A stretch of 64,000 nt of DNA from positions 1-64,000 of the IMG/VR virus record IMGVR_UViG_3300025015_000010. The stretch is one strand, 5' to 3'. The stretch's first letter is position 1. Each line of letters begins with the position of its first letter. Source of the DNA: a virus. The notes under the pieces were generated by a model. The model made no database searches. It saw nothing but the letters and a program-made list of their open reading frames with translations, and was not told the origin of the DNA. Of this stretch, positions 40,692-51,864 are shown one piece after another. Both the position numbers and the translations under genes were made by a program.

Positions 40692-40720
40692 TTGACATTA
40701 GCTCGCACAAGTGGTATAGT
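40692..40720 (+). promoter_or_regulatory. Strong sigma70 promoter heading the ncRNA/Ro60 locus
   Basis: TTGACA-17-TATAGT with TG extension. Confidence 0.8.
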
Positions 40721-40769
40721 ACTAGCATAAGAAACAAATGACTTTGGAAACGGAGTCAAATTATGAAAA

Positions 40770-41061
40770 ATAGCGCGTAGATCCATGGGCCATAGCGAGA
40801 ATCCTAACAAAAAGTGCTACCAAGGCACCTCTATCCTACCTGTAAGGAATCGGACTGAGCATGTATGGCGGTATTGGGCAAAGCTCGCAAAGGTCCAAGC
40901 TAGGGATTGGACAATAAGATCCTTGGAGCCGGGTGAAAACCTCACTTCGTGTGACAGCAGGAAACCTGCTTTCAATCCTATTAGCGATTCGTTACCAGTA
41001 TACTGTTCGGGTAACGTCACTCATTCATGATTGTCATAAATGGGTATGAGAAATTGAACGG
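40770..41061 (+). mobile_element. Orphan IS607 right end (tnpB 3' tail plus omegaRNA scaffold)
   Basis: Colinear, gap-free match to 48692-48983; the last 85 nt differ at one base; ends at ..gaaattgaacGG. Confidence 0.9.
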
Positions 41062-41099
41062 TTGCCATGTTAAAGTCCCGGAAACGGAACGAAATTAAC

Positions 41100-41357
41100 C
41101 TCTTGGTGCAGTACAGCGAAGTGAAAGCACAGGAATAATTCTAGTGGATATAGCCGTAATCTATAGTACGAGTTGGCCATAGTAACTATAGTTGTGAGCA
41201 AGGCTGCTAGATACGTTGGACGACAGACGGTGACCTATGCCGGAAATGTACTTTGCGCCTTAATTGGCGGCGTACGAGCAAGGCTGATTAATCGTCAGCC
41301 TACTTAGCCTTCTAAAGATGCCGTAGTTCGTGTCGGTGAAAGCCCGGCCACCGAGAG
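41100..41357 (+). ncRNA. Candidate ~258-nt structured RNA with a tRNA-like terminal stem and T-arm
   Basis: ctcttggtg/caccgagag terminal stem abutting gtcgg-tgaaagc-ccggc; internal hairpins; no ORF in the track. Confidence 0.55.
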
Positions 41358-41371
41358 TTTAATTTTAGAAT

Positions 41372-41440
41372 ACTGAACGAGACGCTTTTGCAGGGTTATC
41401 CTATGGAGATAAAATCCTGCATACTAATTTGCCGTTCAGT
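41372..41440 (+). ncRNA. Y-RNA-like element 1
   Basis: actgaacg/cgttcagt stem, tgcaggg/tcctgca stem, GGTTATC motif. Confidence 0.55.
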
Positions 41441-41449
41441 TTTGTTTGT

Positions 41450-41663: not shown

Positions 41664-43313
41664 ATGTCGAGTTATTTGAAGACTGCTGCGAATCGTAATC
41701 AGAGTACTACACTCCAGACCGAACAGGCACGCGAAGACCAGGTAGTCAACAACGCTGGTGGTTATGTATTTAGCCAGGATGCTTGGTTGAAGGTGAGGTC
41801 GTTTCTTATTCTTGGTGCCGAAGGTGGTACTTACTATGTCGGCGAGAAAGAATTGACTAAGCAGAACACCACTAATTTGCAGGCTTGTCTCAAGGAAGAT
41901 GGGCCACGCTTGGTGCAGTTGATACGCGAGGTATCAGTTAACGGTCTGGCGTCCAAGCAGTCAGCTACCTTGTTTTCCTTGGCGCTAGCCGCTGCGGATG
42001 GTAATGCTGCTACTCGTACGGAAGTTTTGAAGGTACGCGACGAAATTCTGCGTACTGGTTCACATCTGGAAGAATTTGCCAGTTATTTGCTTGGGCTCGG
42101 CTCAAAGTCTTCTAGGTTTACTCGCAGGCTGCTCGGTGGTTGGTACAATAAGCCTATTGACGATCTTGCTTATCAGGCTGTCAAGTACCAGTCCCGTGAA
42201 GGCGTGAGTCACCGCGATATTTTGCGCGTCGCCCATCCCAGGCCAGCGAGTGCATCTCACGATCACTTGTTTAAGTGGGTTGTAGATGGTTCAGCAACAA
42301 CAAAGCCGGTTCCAGAAAAGTTTGCTAACAGAATCAATGTAAAAGCTTTGAAGTCTGTCTTGCAGTTACCAGCGATTGTACAAGCTTTCGAGCGGGCTAA
42401 GGCAGCAACTACTGATACCGAGATTGTGCAGCTTATTACAGAGCATAATCTTCCTCGCGAGTGTATTCCCACACAGTGGCTGAATTCGATTCCAGTGTGG
42501 GAAGCCTTATTGGCAAAGATGCCATTGACCGCGCTGATTCGTAATTTAGGGAAGATGTCTTCGGTCGGACTACTTAGGCCACTTAATGAGGCTTCTAAGC
42601 TGATTGTAGAGAAGCTTAATGACCAAGAGTACTTGACCAAGTCTAGGATTCATCCTATCGGTGTATTGTCGGCTCTGAAGACTTACGAAAGTGGTCACGG
42701 CGTTCGTGGTAAGCTATCTTGGGAACCAGTCAAGCAGGTAATTGATGCGTTGGATAGTGCGTTCTATAAGACGTTTAAGAATGTAGAACCCACTGGCAAG
42801 AACTTCCTACTAGCCTTAGACGTATCAGGTTCGATGGGTGAGGGAGATGTGGGTGGCGTACCTGGATTGAGTCCACGCGAAGCTTCTGCGGCTATGGCTC
42901 TAGTGACTGCTGCCACTGAACCAAACTACGAAATTTTTGGATTTTCAAATAGCTTTGTAAGACTTAATATTACACCCAGGATGCGCTTGGATCAGGCTAC
43001 GAAGGTCATTAGTAATCTGCCATTTGATGGCACAGATTGCTCATTACCAATTCAGTATGCAGATAGGCAGGGCTTAAACGTGGACACGTTTATTGTCTAT
43101 ACTGACAGCGAGACTTACACAGGCAGAATTCATCCGTTCCAGGCTCTCAAGAAGTACCGCGCTAAGACGGGTAAGTTTTCTAAATTGATCGTTGTTGGTA
43201 TGGTTTCCAATGGTTTTACGATTGCAGATCCAAATGACCGAGGCTCACTAGACGTAGTTGGTTTTGACTCATCTGTACCCGAGGTTATTAGGTCGTTTAC
43301 TCTAGCTCAGTAA
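41664..43313 (+). CDS. rsr: Ro60 / Rsr TROVE-domain RNA-binding protein with vWA domain
   Basis: NNAGGYVF, FLILG.EGGTYY, KYQSREG.SHRD.LR.AHP, MPLTALIRNLG, DVSGSM, YTDSET, DVVGFD. Confidence 0.95.
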   Translation: MSSYLKTAANRNQSTTLQTEQAREDQVVNNAGGYVFSQDAWLKVRSFLILGAEGGTYYVGEKELTKQNTTNLQACLKEDGPRLVQLIREVSVNGLASKQSATLFSLALAAADGNAATRTEVLKVRDEILRTGSHLEEFASYLLGLGSKSSRFTRRLLGGWYNKPIDDLAYQAVKYQSREGVSHRDILRVAHPRPASASHDHLFKWVVDGSATTKPVPEKFANRINVKALKSVLQLPAIVQAFERAKAATTDTEIVQLITEHNLPRECIPTQWLNSIPVWEALLAKMPLTALIRNLGKMSSVGLLRPLNEASKLIVEKLNDQEYLTKSRIHPIGVLSALKTYESGHGVRGKLSWEPVKQVIDALDSAFYKTFKNVEPTGKNFLLALDVSGSMGEGDVGGVPGLSPREASAAMALVTAATEPNYEIFGFSNSFVRLNITPRMRLDQATKVISNLPFDGTDCSLPIQYADRQGLNVDTFIVYTDSETYTGRIHPFQALKKYRAKTGKFSKLIVVGMVSNGFTIADPNDRGSLDVVGFDSSVPEVIRSFTLAQ

Positions 43314-43320
43314 AAGCATT

Positions 43321-43450
43321 AGTCGGTACGTCAGTACTGGGTTATCTTCTTAGGGAAGTGAGGCACAGGTTCGAATCCTGTCGGGTGACGCGAGTCACAC
43401 GTAGCTTAGTGGACAGAGCGCATTAGCTCCAGTACAGTATTTGACCGGCT
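43321..43450 (+). ncRNA. YrlA-type Y RNA (circularly permuted tRNA mimic)
   Basis: agtcggtacg...ttgaccggct stem; T-arm acagg-ttcgaat-cctgt precedes a closed acceptor-like hairpin and the D-arm tagcttagtggacagagc. Confidence 0.85.
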
Positions 43451-46231: not shown

Positions 46232-46926
46232 GCGACGAAACGACATTACGGGGCATGACTTCTTTATCATTTTTTTGCTACTTATTAGATGACGAGAGCG
46301 TACCACAGAAGATTAAGAATTTAGCCCGAGTATCTAGAATGTTACTGACTGTTATACCCAATCCAGAAGATATGACCGATGAGTTACAAGATTTCAAACA
46401 AGAAGCAGACGAATGCTATCAAATTTCTATAGACATTCTCGCGGACGTGATCCGAAAAGAATCACCCAAAGTTTGGGTTACGTTTCTTGACCGGATTCCA
46501 TCCGAGATTCAAGATGGCATAGCATTAGAGGGCAAGCCGTGATACAGACAGATGTAAAGATTGTGAAGGCAGTGTGTGATTCGTGTCACAAGACGCTTGT
46601 AGATAAGAAGTCGATACCGGGCGCGACGTTGCTGCATTACGCCGAATTGATACCTAGATTTGGTTATGGACACGAGCTAGATAATATCAACGATGGCGAG
46701 TACCATGTCTGTGGTAAGTGTTGGCAGCGAGTGCTGAAGTTGTTGGGATTATCGCGTGGCACATAGATTTGATGGTCGATGGAAGTGGTGTCCAGCGTGT
46801 AAAATACCTAGGATCAAATGTCTAGACCCAGACTGTTTTGGCCCGTCTTGTAATGGCGGCGGGTTCTCAACAGTAAATTAGAATCTACCCTTGAAACCCC
46901 CATCAATACAGTGGTAGACTTAATAT

Positions 46927-47499
46927 ATGAAGCTGAATGATTGGGCAAAGCTGCAAGGGATCACTTATAAAACAGCACATCGCTGGTTTCAAGCAGGTAT
47001 TATTCCTGATCCTGTAAGACAACTTCCAACAGGAACGATTCTGGTCGATGTCGAAAACATTACGAAAGTAGAAAATAGGACCGCGCTTTACGCCCGAGTT
47101 TCATCTTCTGGCCAGAAGGTTGATTTAGACCGACAAACATCAAGACTTATGAGTTTTGCACTCGAAAACAAACTGACCATTGTTGATTCTGTACAGGAAA
47201 TCGGCAGTGGTCTTAACGGACATCGCAAAAAGTTACTGAAGTTGCTGGCCGATAAAAGCATAAATACCATTGTTATAGAGCATCGAGAACGTCTTGCACG
47301 ATTTGGATTTGATTACATCGAAGCAGCCTTGGCCGCGACTGGGCGTAAGCTTGTAGTGATAGACAGCACTGAGATGAAAGACGATTTAGTTCAGGACATG
47401 ATTGATGTTTTGACATCATTTTGTGCAAGACTTTACGGACGCAGGTCCGCAAAGAACAAGGCAAAGAAAGCCATAGAAAGCATTCATGAGCAAGGATAG
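46927..47499 (+). CDS. tnpA: IS607 serine transposase
   Basis: MerR-type HTH, YARVSS..QK.DL.RQ, EH.ERLARFG, SFCARLYGRRS. Confidence 0.95.
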   Translation: MKLNDWAKLQGITYKTAHRWFQAGIIPDPVRQLPTGTILVDVENITKVENRTALYARVSSSGQKVDLDRQTSRLMSFALENKLTIVDSVQEIGSGLNGHRKKLLKLLADKSINTIVIEHRERLARFGFDYIEAALAATGRKLVVIDSTEMKDDLVQDMIDVLTSFCARLYGRRSAKNKAKKAIESIHEQG

Positions 47500-48952
47500 C
47501 ATTTCCACATTTCAGACTAGGATCGATTCATACCCAGCTTTACAGGCTTATGCAGACCGTCATAATCTGGTCGAGCACAAGTTGTACGCCCAGATATTAG
47601 CCGGTAAAAAGCCGAACAAACTTAAGCAAGCGTTCCTAGTTAAGTATGGCATTACGGCGCGACAATTCAATGCTATTGAGCGAAATCTACGCGGTAAAAT
47701 TAGCAGTGTTCAAGAACTTCGCAAGGACCATAAAAAGGAAACAAACTACAGGATCAAGGATTGTGAGCGCAAGATAGAATTTGTCAAGGACAATCTCAAA
47801 CAGCACAATTTGAAGCGCAGATTGCATGGCCTAAAAACCAGGTTGGCCAGGCTCGAACAGATGCCAAAATCCTTGTGTTTCGGGTCCAGGAAGTTGTTCA
47901 ACTCACAATTCGGTCCAGAAATAGATCATGATGTTTGGTCCAGTGATTGGAAACAGTCCCGTTCGAGTCAGTTCTATGTTCTCGGTTCTCACGAAGAAAC
48001 ATCAGGGTGCCAAGGATGTGTCGCTACTGTGCAGGACGACGGCAGCTTAACGCTACGTTTGCGCCTTCCAGATGCACTGATGGCCATCCATGGTAAGTAT
48101 ATTGAAATCCCCGGCGTGTACTTTAACCACGGCCATGAGCATGTACTACAGGCCCTGGCTTTGGGTAATACACCAACCAACTACAGGTTTAAGCTAGATG
48201 GCATTGGCTGGAGAGTCTTCGTTTCAGTTCACGTCATCGAAGCCAAAATTGTTACCAGGGACAGCCTGGGCAGAGTCGGTTTTGACCTTAATGAAGATCA
48301 CATCGCAGTTACCGAGACCGACCGTTTTGGAAATATAATCAACACGTTCAATGAGCCTGTAATAACCACAGACTTGACCACGCACCAGACATTGGCAGTC
48401 TTAGGCAATGCAGTTAAGAATATCGTAGCTTACGCCAAGAACGTTCAAAAGCCTATTGTTATTGAGAAGTTAGATTTCCAAAAGAAACGTGCTGAACTTC
48501 GTGGCCGAGGCCAAACTGCGAAGAATCTTAGTTCATTCGCGTACAGTAAATTCAGATCCATAGTCGTATCGCGTTGTCAGCGAGAAGGCATTAAGGTTTA
48601 CAACGTGAATCCGGCCTACACATCGATTATCGGTAGAAATAAGTTCGCGCTTCGGTACGGACTCACAGTACACAATGCAGCGGCGCTAACTATAGCACGT
48701 AGATCCATGGGCCTAAGTGAGAACCCAAATAAAAAGTGCTACCAAGGCACCTCTTTCCTACCTGTAAGGAATCGGACAGAGCATGTGTGGCGGTACTGGG
48801 CAAAACTCGCAAAGGCTCAAGCTAGGGATTGGGCCACAAGATCCTCGAAACCTGACGCAAATCACGTTTCGTGTGATAGCAGGAAACCTGCTCTCGGTCC
48901 TATTAGCGATTCGTTACCAGTATACTGTTCGGGTAACGTCACTCATTCGTGA
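47486..48952 (+). CDS. tnpB: TnpB-related RNA-guided nuclease
   Basis: RuvC-I GFDLN, RuvC-II VIEKL, VNPAYTS, RuvC-III HNAAALTIARR. Confidence 0.9.
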   Translation: MSKDSISTFQTRIDSYPALQAYADRHNLVEHKLYAQILAGKKPNKLKQAFLVKYGITARQFNAIERNLRGKISSVQELRKDHKKETNYRIKDCERKIEFVKDNLKQHNLKRRLHGLKTRLARLEQMPKSLCFGSRKLFNSQFGPEIDHDVWSSDWKQSRSSQFYVLGSHEETSGCQGCVATVQDDGSLTLRLRLPDALMAIHGKYIEIPGVYFNHGHEHVLQALALGNTPTNYRFKLDGIGWRVFVSVHVIEAKIVTRDSLGRVGFDLNEDHIAVTETDRFGNIINTFNEPVITTDLTTHQTLAVLGNAVKNIVAYAKNVQKPIVIEKLDFQKKRAELRGRGQTAKNLSSFAYSKFRSIVVSRCQREGIKVYNVNPAYTSIIGRNKFALRYGLTVHNAAALTIARRSMGLSENPNKKCYQGTSFLPVRNRTEHVWRYWAKLAKAQARDWATRSSKPDANHVSCDSRKPALGPISDSLPVYCSGNVTHS

Positions 48953-50158
48953 TTGTCATAAATGGGTATGAGAAATTGAACGGTGTTCAAAATGTTCGGA
49001 CGATTTCGATGAGGCTATCGATATGATCAATAATGGTACGGCCCCAACCCATGCTGATTTTCCAAATGCAGACGCCGATGAGATTGAGTACAATAATGAT
49101 CCATTAGGACTTGGTTCGTTGAGTAAAGGAACATCTTGATGGCTGAGTGGACCCGAGAACGCCACGATAAGTGCAAGCAGGCTATTGCCAAGGCCACGCC
49201 AGGCCCGTGGTTTGGTAATAGTTATGGCGAGATGTTTTCAGCTAAAGACTGCACTTGCTGGCCAGGTGACCCAGAGGGTGGAGGACATTTTAAGGAAGGC
49301 TGTCCGTACTATGATTCAGAAGAAGCTAGATTTCCAATAGTGCCCATTTGGGGACACGAAAGTTCGATGGATATGGTGTTTGTCGAGGTGGCTAGGAATC
49401 ATCTGCCCGATGCCTTAGCCGAGATCGAGCGCTTGTGCATTAGGTGCGATGATTTAAAGCATGAGTTAATCGCGGCTGGACGGTGTAAGTAATGTCGTTC
49501 AGCATGTTTCTTCCAAACTATCCAAATAGTGGCTTAGCCGCTGATATGAGTGAGTTGTTCGAAGTTTGGCCAAAGGTACATAGATTGTCTATGGAACAAC
49601 AGGCTGTATACGCTGATGCAGTATTTCGTTGCCATATCGACAATAATGAGTTTTTGTTTCTAAGCCTAGTGCGCTGCGGATCGCCAGCAACAACGACCGC
49701 TGTTGGTAATCTGGCATTCGTGATTTTGTATGTCAAGGACGAGGCAATTAAAGAAAAAGCCAGAGAAATTCTAGGTAATTTTGTTCAGCAAAGAAACCTT
49801 TTAGATGAGAAGCGAGGTAGAAAGTGAGCAAGTCTAAGTGTACAGGCGCTTGCTGTAAACATGTTGCCGGTAAATTAGCCCTCCAAGTGTCTGATTCGAG
49901 ATACGAGCGCTTAACAAAGCGTGTAGACGAAAGTAAGAAGCTGGCAGATTTGTACCGCGAGCTAGGAATAATTCATGGACAATATGCAGAAGATGTGGGA
50001 CAGTTGTTGTTCGAAGTTAGCATAGCCTCGATGAGTGGCAGTTTAGCCTCTGAGATAGGGAATGCTTGTGTACTGCCACAAGAATTGTCAGAGATGAGTA
50101 ATTCTAAACCAAATGGTAGGCTAAAAAGTGCTATAAAAAAGCACGGACGTAATTTTGC

Positions 50159-50214: not shown

Positions 50215-51096
50215 ATGACGTTGCCACAGAAGGTGTATTTGCAGGCCGATCAGAAGTTATCCTTGACAAATGATGGCCAGCTAGAAGTCTTTTTTCTTGG
50301 TGTAGGCTCTGCATTTGCCAAGACACTTAATCAGTTAAATTTCTTGCTGATCAAAGGGAATCAGCATGTGCTGATCGATTTTGGCATGACGGGTCCACGT
50401 GCGCTTCAGGAAACCGCCAGACTTGATCCTACGGATATTGAGTACCTTTTGCCAACGCATCTCCATGCCGATCATGTAGGCGGTATCGAGGCACATGCTT
50501 TGCTTAGTAGATATGTAGGTATTCCGTTTAAGAAGAAGCCAAAGCCGAAGGCCATCCTATCTAGGGAACTGGAAATTCAGTTGTGGGATGATACCCTTCG
50601 CGGTGGGATGCAGTACAATGAGAATATTGCAGAAGTAAAGTCTGGCCGTAGGTCACTTACTTTTGGCGATTACTACGATGTGATTCGTCCGCGATGGAAG
50701 CAAAATCAGCCACGCGAAATGTTAGAAATTAACTTAGGCGGCATTCAAATCGAGTTATTCCGCACTAAGCACATTCCAGACGGCGTCGGTTCATGGGAAG
50801 ATTCGTTTACCAGCTTCGGATTGTTTGTAGACAATCATGTATTTATTTCGGTGGATACCAGATTTGATTTAGAACTTATCAATCAGTACAAAGACCGTGC
50901 AGATGTTTGGTTTCACGATTGCCAGTTATTTGAGCCCGAGTCAGTGCATGCAACTTTAGGTTCACTACGGACACTTCCGGCCGAGGTCAAGCGAAATATG
51001 TACTTGATGCATTATGGCGATAACTATAAGACAGTTGATGTTGGCGAATTCGCAGGCTTTGCAGAGCAAGGTGTGATCTACCGTTTCGCAAATTAG
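50215..51096 (+). CDS. apyc1: MBL-fold cyclic-nucleotide phosphodiesterase, Apyc1 (anti-Pycsar)-like
   Basis: G.GSAF.K, THLHADHVGG, LW..TL.GG, DTRFD, FHDCQ, VHA.L, LMHYGDN. Confidence 0.8.
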   Translation: MTLPQKVYLQADQKLSLTNDGQLEVFFLGVGSAFAKTLNQLNFLLIKGNQHVLIDFGMTGPRALQETARLDPTDIEYLLPTHLHADHVGGIEAHALLSRYVGIPFKKKPKPKAILSRELEIQLWDDTLRGGMQYNENIAEVKSGRRSLTFGDYYDVIRPRWKQNQPREMLEINLGGIQIELFRTKHIPDGVGSWEDSFTSFGLFVDNHVFISVDTRFDLELINQYKDRADVWFHDCQLFEPESVHATLGSLRTLPAEVKRNMYLMHYGDNYKTVDVGEFAGFAEQGVIYRFAN

Positions 51097-51108: not shown

Positions 51109-51864
51109 TTGCCATTTGAGGAATACTTAGACGAAATAAAGCAATACCCGCTTCTTACAAGACAACAAGAGAAAGAGTTAGGAACATTAGCATTAGCTGG
51201 AGATAAAAGAGCACAAGGCAGATTAGCCAATGCTAATCTTCGTCTTGTTGTGTCAATAGCCAAAAAATACACAACAAGTGGGGTATTGATTGAAGATATT
51301 GTGCAAGAAGGTAATATTGGTCTTCTTAGGGCTGTAGAAAAGTTTGATCCAAATTTTGGTGTTCGTTTTTCAACCTATGCAACTTACTGGATCAAACAGG
51401 CTATTCAGCGTGCAGTACGCGGTAAAATGGGTGTCATCAAAGTACCTACCAATATAGCTGAATTGGCAACTAAAGGGCAAGTGAGTGACATTGCCGATTT
51501 TGCACGCCGTGCTATGACGCCATCGACGTCTATCGACGAAGAAGATACCAAACTGACAGACATAATGATAGGTAGTGATCCTAATCCACAGGATGTTACG
51601 GATGTGGTGATCACCAGAGAGTATCTCCGTGATGTTTTAGATCGACTACCTAAGCGCACAGCGGATGTTTTGCGACGCAGATTTGGCCTACATGGTAAAC
51701 GCGGTAAATGCGCTACTCTGTCAACACTGTCTAAGCTGTTGAAGATATCGAAAGAGCGCGTCCGCCAAATCGAAGATGAGGGACTAGTTATGTTACGCGA
51801 GTTAATGACAGGGAAGCAGGAAATGTGTGACTTAGATCAAAGAGACAGAGAAAAGTTTTGGTAG
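51109..51864 (+). CDS. sigma70-family RNA polymerase sigma factor (RpoD/RpoS-like, no region 1.1)
   Basis: [50 protein letters not shown]. Confidence 0.95.

Follow-up and report, generated by a model that had tools for sequence, protein, structure and literature searches.

A solo IS607-type right end with a predicted omegaRNA scaffold behind a promoter cassette in the ncRNA/Ro60 locus of a large groundwater phage

Elements of the IS607 family are the first point of comparison for the locus described here; in an experimentally studied case, the Clostridium botulinum IStron, the omegaRNA scaffold ends in UCGG and the flank that follows is the guide (bioRxiv 10.1101/2023.11.20.567912). PATEs are protein-less derivatives of IS200/IS605 elements that encode an omegaRNA only and have been proposed to be served in trans (Meers et al. 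2023, PMC10055086). TldR proteins are domesticated, nuclease-dead TnpBs that work with fixed guide RNAs (bioRxiv 10.1101/2023.11.30.569447). Among TnpBs themselves, the RIIIr-4 clade has a histidine in place of the RuvC-III aspartate and no zinc finger; it is over-represented in viruses, is presumed active because the aspartate-to-histidine change is conserved, and is linked in part to RHH/MazE partners (Altae-Tran et al. 2023, PMC10691335).

We analysed a window (the whole stretch of DNA under study) that covers positions 1 to 64,000 of an IMG/VR virus record of 168.7 kb. The full record, G000, has a completeness estimate of 77%, and several groundwater metagenome assemblies contain the same phage. 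The window holds a complete IS607-type element at 46861–48983 on the plus strand, and upstream of it, at 40770–41061 on the same strand, an orphan IS607-type right end consisting of the last 87 tnpB codons together with the whole predicted omegaRNA scaffold, and ending in GAACGG. The limits of the orphan come from gapless alignment, the open frame and a breakpoint. We think it reasonably probable that the orphan is the solo right end of a second insertion, recently fused to a cassette with a promoter for non-coding RNA, that it is probably transcribed and possibly loadable into TnpB, and that its guide is merely the flank of the old insertion site.

The resident element is like the IStron in that a serine-recombinase TnpA is followed by an overlapping tnpB, a GG core is present at both ends, the scaffold ends in CGG with the 3' flank as guide, and many sites are used. 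Unlike the IStron it has no group I intron, its left flanks are RYGG (at four sites) rather than TGGG, and its TnpB has histidine for aspartate and is without a zinc finger. The orphan departs further from IS607 elements, being without left end, tnpA and most of tnpB; having neither a left end nor a transposase, it does not count as an IS607 insertion sequence. It is like a PATE in being an omegaRNA gene without a TnpB of its own while TnpB is encoded elsewhere in the genome. PATEs, however, keep both ends, stay mobile and belong to the Y1-transposase family, whereas the orphan is one-ended and immobile and sits behind a phage promoter cassette with no left end near it. With TldR systems it shares a transposon-derived guide RNA placed outside transposition, with a fixed genomic target that for the orphan is putative. 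In TldR systems both protein and RNA are immobilised, conserved across species and directed at known targets, whereas the phage TnpB is still encoded in a mobile element, and for the orphan RNA we found neither a target nor conservation. Even if functional here, a trans-served omegaRNA would not be new in kind, since one has already been proposed for PATEs (PMC10055086).

The earlier note on this DNA had matched the orphan without gaps to the terminal 292 bp of the element, and so do we (40770–41061 against 48692–48983; 89% identity, 33 of 292 positions differing). Within the 168.7-kb genome the match between the two right ends has an E value of 4e-107, and both blastn and nhmmer return these two right-end copies only. 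The copies are spaced 7,922 bp apart, with the orphan ending 6.4 kb from the start of the resident tnpB. The differences are concentrated at the 5' side, 32 of the 33 lying in the first 207 nt and one in the terminal 85 nt (Fisher p 1.5e-4), so the near-unchanged terminus that had been pointed out is borne out; the single terminal change, A versus G at 41027, preserves a predicted pair with U, again as proposed. The drift had also been called largely synonymous, a description that suits the 18 differences at third codon positions and not the 15 at first or second positions, and there are 13 amino-acid changes among the 86 codons common to both copies.

In the orphan the TnpB frame is open from 40767 to 41030 and closes with the same TGA stop as the resident gene. 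We confirmed the reported absence of tnpA, upstream tnpB and left end; the DNA preceding 40770 has no relation to the element. Downstream, the flanks of the orphan and the resident copy diverge from the first base or two after GAACGG, as had been noted, in keeping with a solo right end made up of an omegaRNA-coding block and a different flank. Both junctions of the orphan recur unchanged in independently assembled contigs from ENA, from JGI and from one more sample (L003, L004, L005, L007 and L032).

Boundaries of the resident element were set by comparison with the related contigs L010, L013 and L017. Its tnpA (46927–47499, plus strand) encodes a small serine recombinase of the IS607 type (NF033518, 200 bits against a cut-off of 110; PF00239, 2.5e-18), and tnpB (47486–48952, plus strand), which overlaps it, encodes 488 aa. 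An omegaRNA block at about 48690–48983 (plus strand) was recognised from third-position conservation, and the flank directly after the right end, 48984–49003 (plus strand), is taken as the guide. A 93%-identical relative, L015, has an IS607-type element at the same site with this same right flank. The left end begins at GG at 46861, and the left-end motif occurs once in the genome, at 46862. In related contigs the right end is always GAACGG followed by seven different flanks, and the left ends have four different flanks, all ending in YGG (GCGG, ATGG, ACGG and ATGG), which places the GG core at both element ends (four left sites, seven right sites). The element is evidently mobile and active in this group of related groundwater phages, because these seven right-end and four left-end flanks differ among related contigs. 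The left flanks are indistinguishable from the right end's own ACGG, and so no target-adjacent motif could be derived from them.

Two minor observations concern the IS607-type elements themselves. A 13-nt stretch identical to the resident guide occurs at G000 77145–77157 on the minus strand, where about 0.005 such matches would be expected by chance; it is not preceded by GG. The sister element closest to the orphan (L011:362–3125) has its tnpA shrunk to a 56-aa stub, located directly after a second, canonical TnpB gene of 373 aa (NF040570, 131 bits), an arrangement that resembles a nested or adjacent insertion.

The RuvC-fold nuclease domain of the resident TnpB is recognisable by profile, scoring 50 bits with TIGR01766 (cut-off 32), though only 41 bits with NF040570 (cut-off 100). 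A sequence search of the PDB with it gave nothing relevant, whereas a Foldseek search with its AF2 model (pLDDT 73) matched Cas12f, Cas12k, Cas12m and the IS607 TnpB structure of ISFba1, with E values of 1e-9 to 2e-5 and low TM scores of 0.3–0.4. In an alignment of 23 TnpB homologues at 43–86% identity, D267 and E327 are invariant, and the third catalytic position is an equally invariant H396 in place of the last residue of the canonical D-E-D triad. The C4 zinc finger is absent, with no cysteine pairs between the YTS motif and H396. The protein is 85% identical to that of the sister lineage, and from residue 415 onward its pLDDT drops below 50, so that a disordered tail is predicted. It is thus like the RIIIr-4 clade in having H396 for the RuvC-III aspartate, in being without the C4 zinc finger and in being phage-borne; unlike part of that clade it has no RHH/MazE partners, and the likeness is one of clade description, not of phylogeny. 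Because the resident IS607-type element encodes a protein with a predicted TnpB fold, loading of the orphan RNA in trans, as had been suggested, is plausible.

Third-codon-position conservation among four intact copies of the element is about 0.2 along most of tnpB and rises to 0.8–0.95 from about 48,680 to the end. This jump marks a second, non-coding constraint on the 3' end of tnpB. The position where the orphan begins corresponds to 48,692, at the edge of the constrained block, and the orphan hence retains the entire predicted scaffold and almost nothing else. By our own post hoc estimate, a random cut would fall within 50 nt of the block edge with a chance of about 3%. At the other end, identity among the seven insertions stops exactly after GAACGG, which we take as the boundary between scaffold and guide, with the variable flank as putative guide.

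Support for a folded scaffold was mixed. RNAalifold on the right ends predicted 89 pairs, six of them with compensatory changes, from five closely related sequences only, and the single-sequence fold of the block was no more stable than shuffles (z −1.26). Where changes private to the orphan fall at predicted paired positions, the pair is kept in five of seven cases; one predicted pair is C-G in the orphan and U-A or U-G in the other copies. Two conserved predicted pairs, 40792/40891 and 40929/40944, are broken in the orphan. An Rfam search with the orphan sequence found no family, a lysM-Actino match at 18 bits being noise.

Upstream of the orphan lies a sigma-70-type promoter, TTGACA-17-TATAGT with a TG extension (40692–40720, plus strand), which matches 11 of 12 consensus positions. 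Its near-consensus quality and its position, 49 nt away, agree with what had been reported. The region has no excess of promoter-like sites (7 against an expected 6.4), yet this one is conserved in relatives. The related contigs L013, L021 and L020 share with the window an upstream gene of 278 aa, a TTGACA-17-TAYAGT promoter and a leader hairpin (40740–40757, plus strand), whose pairing is preserved through compensatory changes, on both sides of the stem, in L021, L020 and a further copy of the cassette. That copy, of promoter plus leader, lies at G000 113288–113210 on the minus strand (L024), making two in the genome. Similarity to the three relatives ends at a common base, equivalent to window position 40764; its location right after the hairpin suggests a recombination breakpoint. 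The orphan had been called promoter-driven, but the promoter is not its own: promoter and leader are part of the phage backbone and predate the orphan, and all three relatives carry other cargo there.

A repeated unit with variable cargo from a common breakpoint is the pattern of promoter/stem-loop shuffling. T4-type phages reportedly contain such cassettes, termed PeSL, said to have been described by Arbiol and colleagues in 2010. The window cassette is like a PeSL in being a repeated unit of early-type promoter and stem-loop with differing cargo behind it in related genomes; unlike in PeSLs, the cargo in the window is a non-coding RNA, the genome has two copies, and recombination is deduced from the shared breakpoint.

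No terminator-like site was found between the promoter and the orphan or after the orphan. Following the putative guide (41062–41081, plus strand) comes a stem-closed structured RNA candidate at 41091–41364 (plus strand; about 275 nt), whose paired ends form a long terminal helix in both MFE and centroid folds and which is not part of the IS; its folding energy has a z of only −1.2, and it has no relative in L013 or L021. The conserved backbone resumes with a YrlB-like small RNA at 41369–41441 (plus strand; a weak match to Rfam RF02565, 22 bits, E 0.38), nearly identical in L013 and L021. Beyond it are a Ro60/TROVE protein gene at 41664–43313 (plus strand; PF05731, 7.5e-36; PF25045, 3e-63) and a YrlA-like RNA at 43339–43450. 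Because relatives share the cassette up to 40764 and then have unrelated cargo, and because the cassette is repeated in the genome, we conclude from these comparisons that the orphan is in the apparent cargo slot of a promoter cassette driving a long RNA-rich operon (the stem-closed RNA, Y-RNA-like elements, Ro60 and tRNA-Met). Transcription through the orphan is likely, given the conserved promoter cassette with no terminator behind it.

In L013 (6832–7167, minus strand) and L021 (1514–1833), the slot taken by the orphan is occupied by a conserved non-coding element about 335 nt long. Its two versions are 78% identical, a strong hairpin forms its end, Rfam gives no match for it, and it is itself an RNA candidate. 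We considered whether it could be a diverged omegaRNA and rejected this, having found no similarity by Smith-Waterman comparison against shuffles, blastn, nhmmer or Rfam. The flank 41062–41368 likewise has no homology to L013 or L021. At 15 of its 18 positions, 41080–41097 resembles the loop, 3' arm and tail of the leader hairpin (shuffle p about 0.0005; a score as high in 0.24% of genome windows), so that a leader-like piece lies on either side of the orphan and its next 18 nt or so.

Derivation of the orphan from the resident copy did not hold up. The orphan is 93.9% identical to the right end of the sister lineage L011/L019, 88.7% to the resident copy and 86.5% to L010; the higher identity to L011/L019 argues that it is not a duplicate of the resident copy. 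It is also a mosaic, following L011 at 20 of 23 informative sites in columns 6–206 and the resident copy at 3 of 3 in columns 250–286, the last 40 nt or so. This suggests that the orphan either underwent gene conversion with the resident copy's right end or descends from a recombinant parent, and such a mosaic origin would account for part of the near-identity in the last 85 nt.

That the 5' part has drifted while the 3' end is conserved had been put forward as a sign of domestication, which the comparison with intact copies does not support. Intact copies are likewise variable at the 5' side and conserved at the 3' side (23 versus 3 differences between the resident copy and L011), and dN/dS among intact copies, 0.29–0.81, is equal to or higher than that between the orphan and intact copies, 0.21–0.41. 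The contrast thus appears to be a family-wide signature and no sign of selection on the orphan. The orphan has 11–12 private changes, and 7 of them are third-position and synonymous. Because dN/dS is not raised and the private changes are mostly synonymous, most of the divergence arose while tnpB was whole, which makes the truncation recent. The orphan is found only in near-identical contigs of one phage population. We sought an empty-site allele in relatives and did not recover one, there being unrelated DNA at the position in L013 and L021 while L020 and L032 end early; since no such allele was recovered, we infer the decay history rather than observe it.

The account we favour would run as follows. 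A second, independent IS607-type copy landed inside the non-coding-RNA/Ro60 locus of the phage, and a later deletion or recombination would have taken its left end, tnpA and the first 1.2 kb of tnpB along with the upstream neighbouring DNA, the same event joining the remaining 292 bp to the pre-existing promoter-plus-leader cassette. The orphan would then be transcribed as the first part of a long ncRNA/Ro60 transcript, and the resident TnpB could bind its RNA. Like any TnpB guide, that RNA together with TnpB would recognise the uninterrupted version of the old insertion site. The orphan on this account reads as a recent relic that happens to be expressible, with no evidence of retention for a purpose. 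As a relic the orphan would be the kind of by-product that an active IS ordinarily leaves in a family of large groundwater phages, of mainly descriptive value: an IS607 whose TnpB is a His variant without a zinc finger is recorded moving within phage genomes, and the locus illustrates a route by which a guide-RNA gene can fall under the control of a promoter cassette.

The main competitor, unlikely but to be taken seriously, is a retained stand-alone guide RNA, expressed from the ncRNA cassette and loaded in trans by the resident TnpB, which would cut or bind DNA matching 41062–41081. Its likely targets would be related phages with the uninterrupted site, in competition or homing, or a host locus. 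The main argument for it is the breakpoint at the edge of the RNA-constrained block, which favours function and counts against a pure relic. It draws further support from the strong conserved promoter upstream with no terminator behind, from the largely intact predicted structure, from the complete element with a TnpB-fold protein 6.4 kb away and from the precedent of omegaRNA-only PATEs already proposed as trans-served (PMC10055086). Evidence on the other side includes the restriction of the orphan to a single phage population, a substitution pattern explained by evolution in intact copies, the two broken pairs, and the identity of the right end's own ACGG with one observed left flank, which left the target-adjacent motif of the clade not derivable. 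To our knowledge no RIIIr-4 member has been characterised biochemically.

The search for a target also weighs against a stand-alone guide. Guide length was taken as 16–20 nt by analogy. The guide has no second match in the window, as had been noted, and none elsewhere in the whole 168.7-kb genome at up to five mismatches; searches of related loci, and of IMG/VR for an exact 18-mer, also gave no match. Retargeting at a host or rival phage, as had been proposed, therefore found no backing in a target from the phage, viral contigs or relatives. In a genome collection of 596 Gb there is one exact match to a 20-mer of the orphan guide, in fact 21 nt long, at L023:689–709. The base before this match is T, where an upstream GG had been suggested. 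The match falls inside an ORF of more than 2600 aa with HopA1 and FHA domains in a MAG of Gammaproteobacteria. By our own arithmetic, a collection of this size searched on both strands should yield about one exact 20-mer by chance; the match is at chance level and lacks the GG core, and we rejected it as a host target and keep it only as a lead.

A more purposive version, in which the phage wired a scaffold-plus-guide RNA into its ncRNA operon and so gave the His-variant TnpB a second, fixed guide against a competitor phage or a host locus, strikes us as rather improbable. If the orphan RNA is made and loaded, this would be a natural TnpB with two guides, one of them fixed and non-mobile, which is the usually assumed first step from transposon nuclease to domesticated RNA-guided system. 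If the second fixed guide is real, the locus would be a naturally occurring intermediate, with a selfish transposon guide on one side and a domesticated CRISPR-like or TldR-like system on the other, and it would make that step testable.

Readings other than the relic and the stand-alone guide together take up a small share of the probability. One, which we hold to be very unlikely, is that the remnant works as DNA, a solo right-end site for the serine recombinase, or as protein, an 81-aa peptide from 40785–41030. It would fit the GAACGG core, the last 85 nt almost identical to the resident right end and an ATG-initiated open frame of 81 codons. Against it, nothing like a Shine-Dalgarno sequence was seen ahead of 40785, disorder is predicted for the matching TnpB tail, and we saw no rearranged contigs joining the orphan right end to the resident left end.

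Slightly more doubtful still is that the orphan and about 20 nt of flank were captured from an IS copy in a bacterial chromosome, with the guide matching the HopA1/FHA ORF of L023. Besides the 21-nt exact match itself, a one-T indel lets the match extend 5' through CGG, and the leader-like piece at 41080–41097 comes right after the guide, so that a foreign block could end there. Such capture is opposed by the chance expectation, by the T in place of the GG that IS607 sites require, by the L023 MAG (1.2 Mb), which shows no further resemblance to the phage and lacks a TnpB homologue, and by the end of the match having been set by the choice of query. That the orphan is an assembly artefact, a repeat made by mis-joined reads of the resident element, is scarcely credible, for although contigs of the group often break or misjoin at the repeat (L012, L032, L014 and L016), both junctions recur in independent assemblies and 33 positions separate the orphan from the resident copy.

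Relatives of the phage came solely from a metagenome scan and a protein database. Megablast of 38–50 kb of the window against GenBank phages found no close relative, nor did single-protein scans or exact motif scans of IMG/VR; L013 is about 77% identical to the window along the backbone. L012, a chimera that joins the resident and sister elements, was not counted among the independent relatives. Breaks and wrong joins at the IS right end are frequent in public contigs of this group: L014 and L016, which are one 50-kb contig, contain two right-end stubs head to head, and the end of L032 (L032:1320–1333) jumps to the other right-end copy. Downstream of the resident IS, the gene table lists an Apyc1-like gene of the metallo-beta-lactamase fold (50215–51096; an anti-Pycsar family hit is on record), followed by a sigma-70 family gene (51109–51864).
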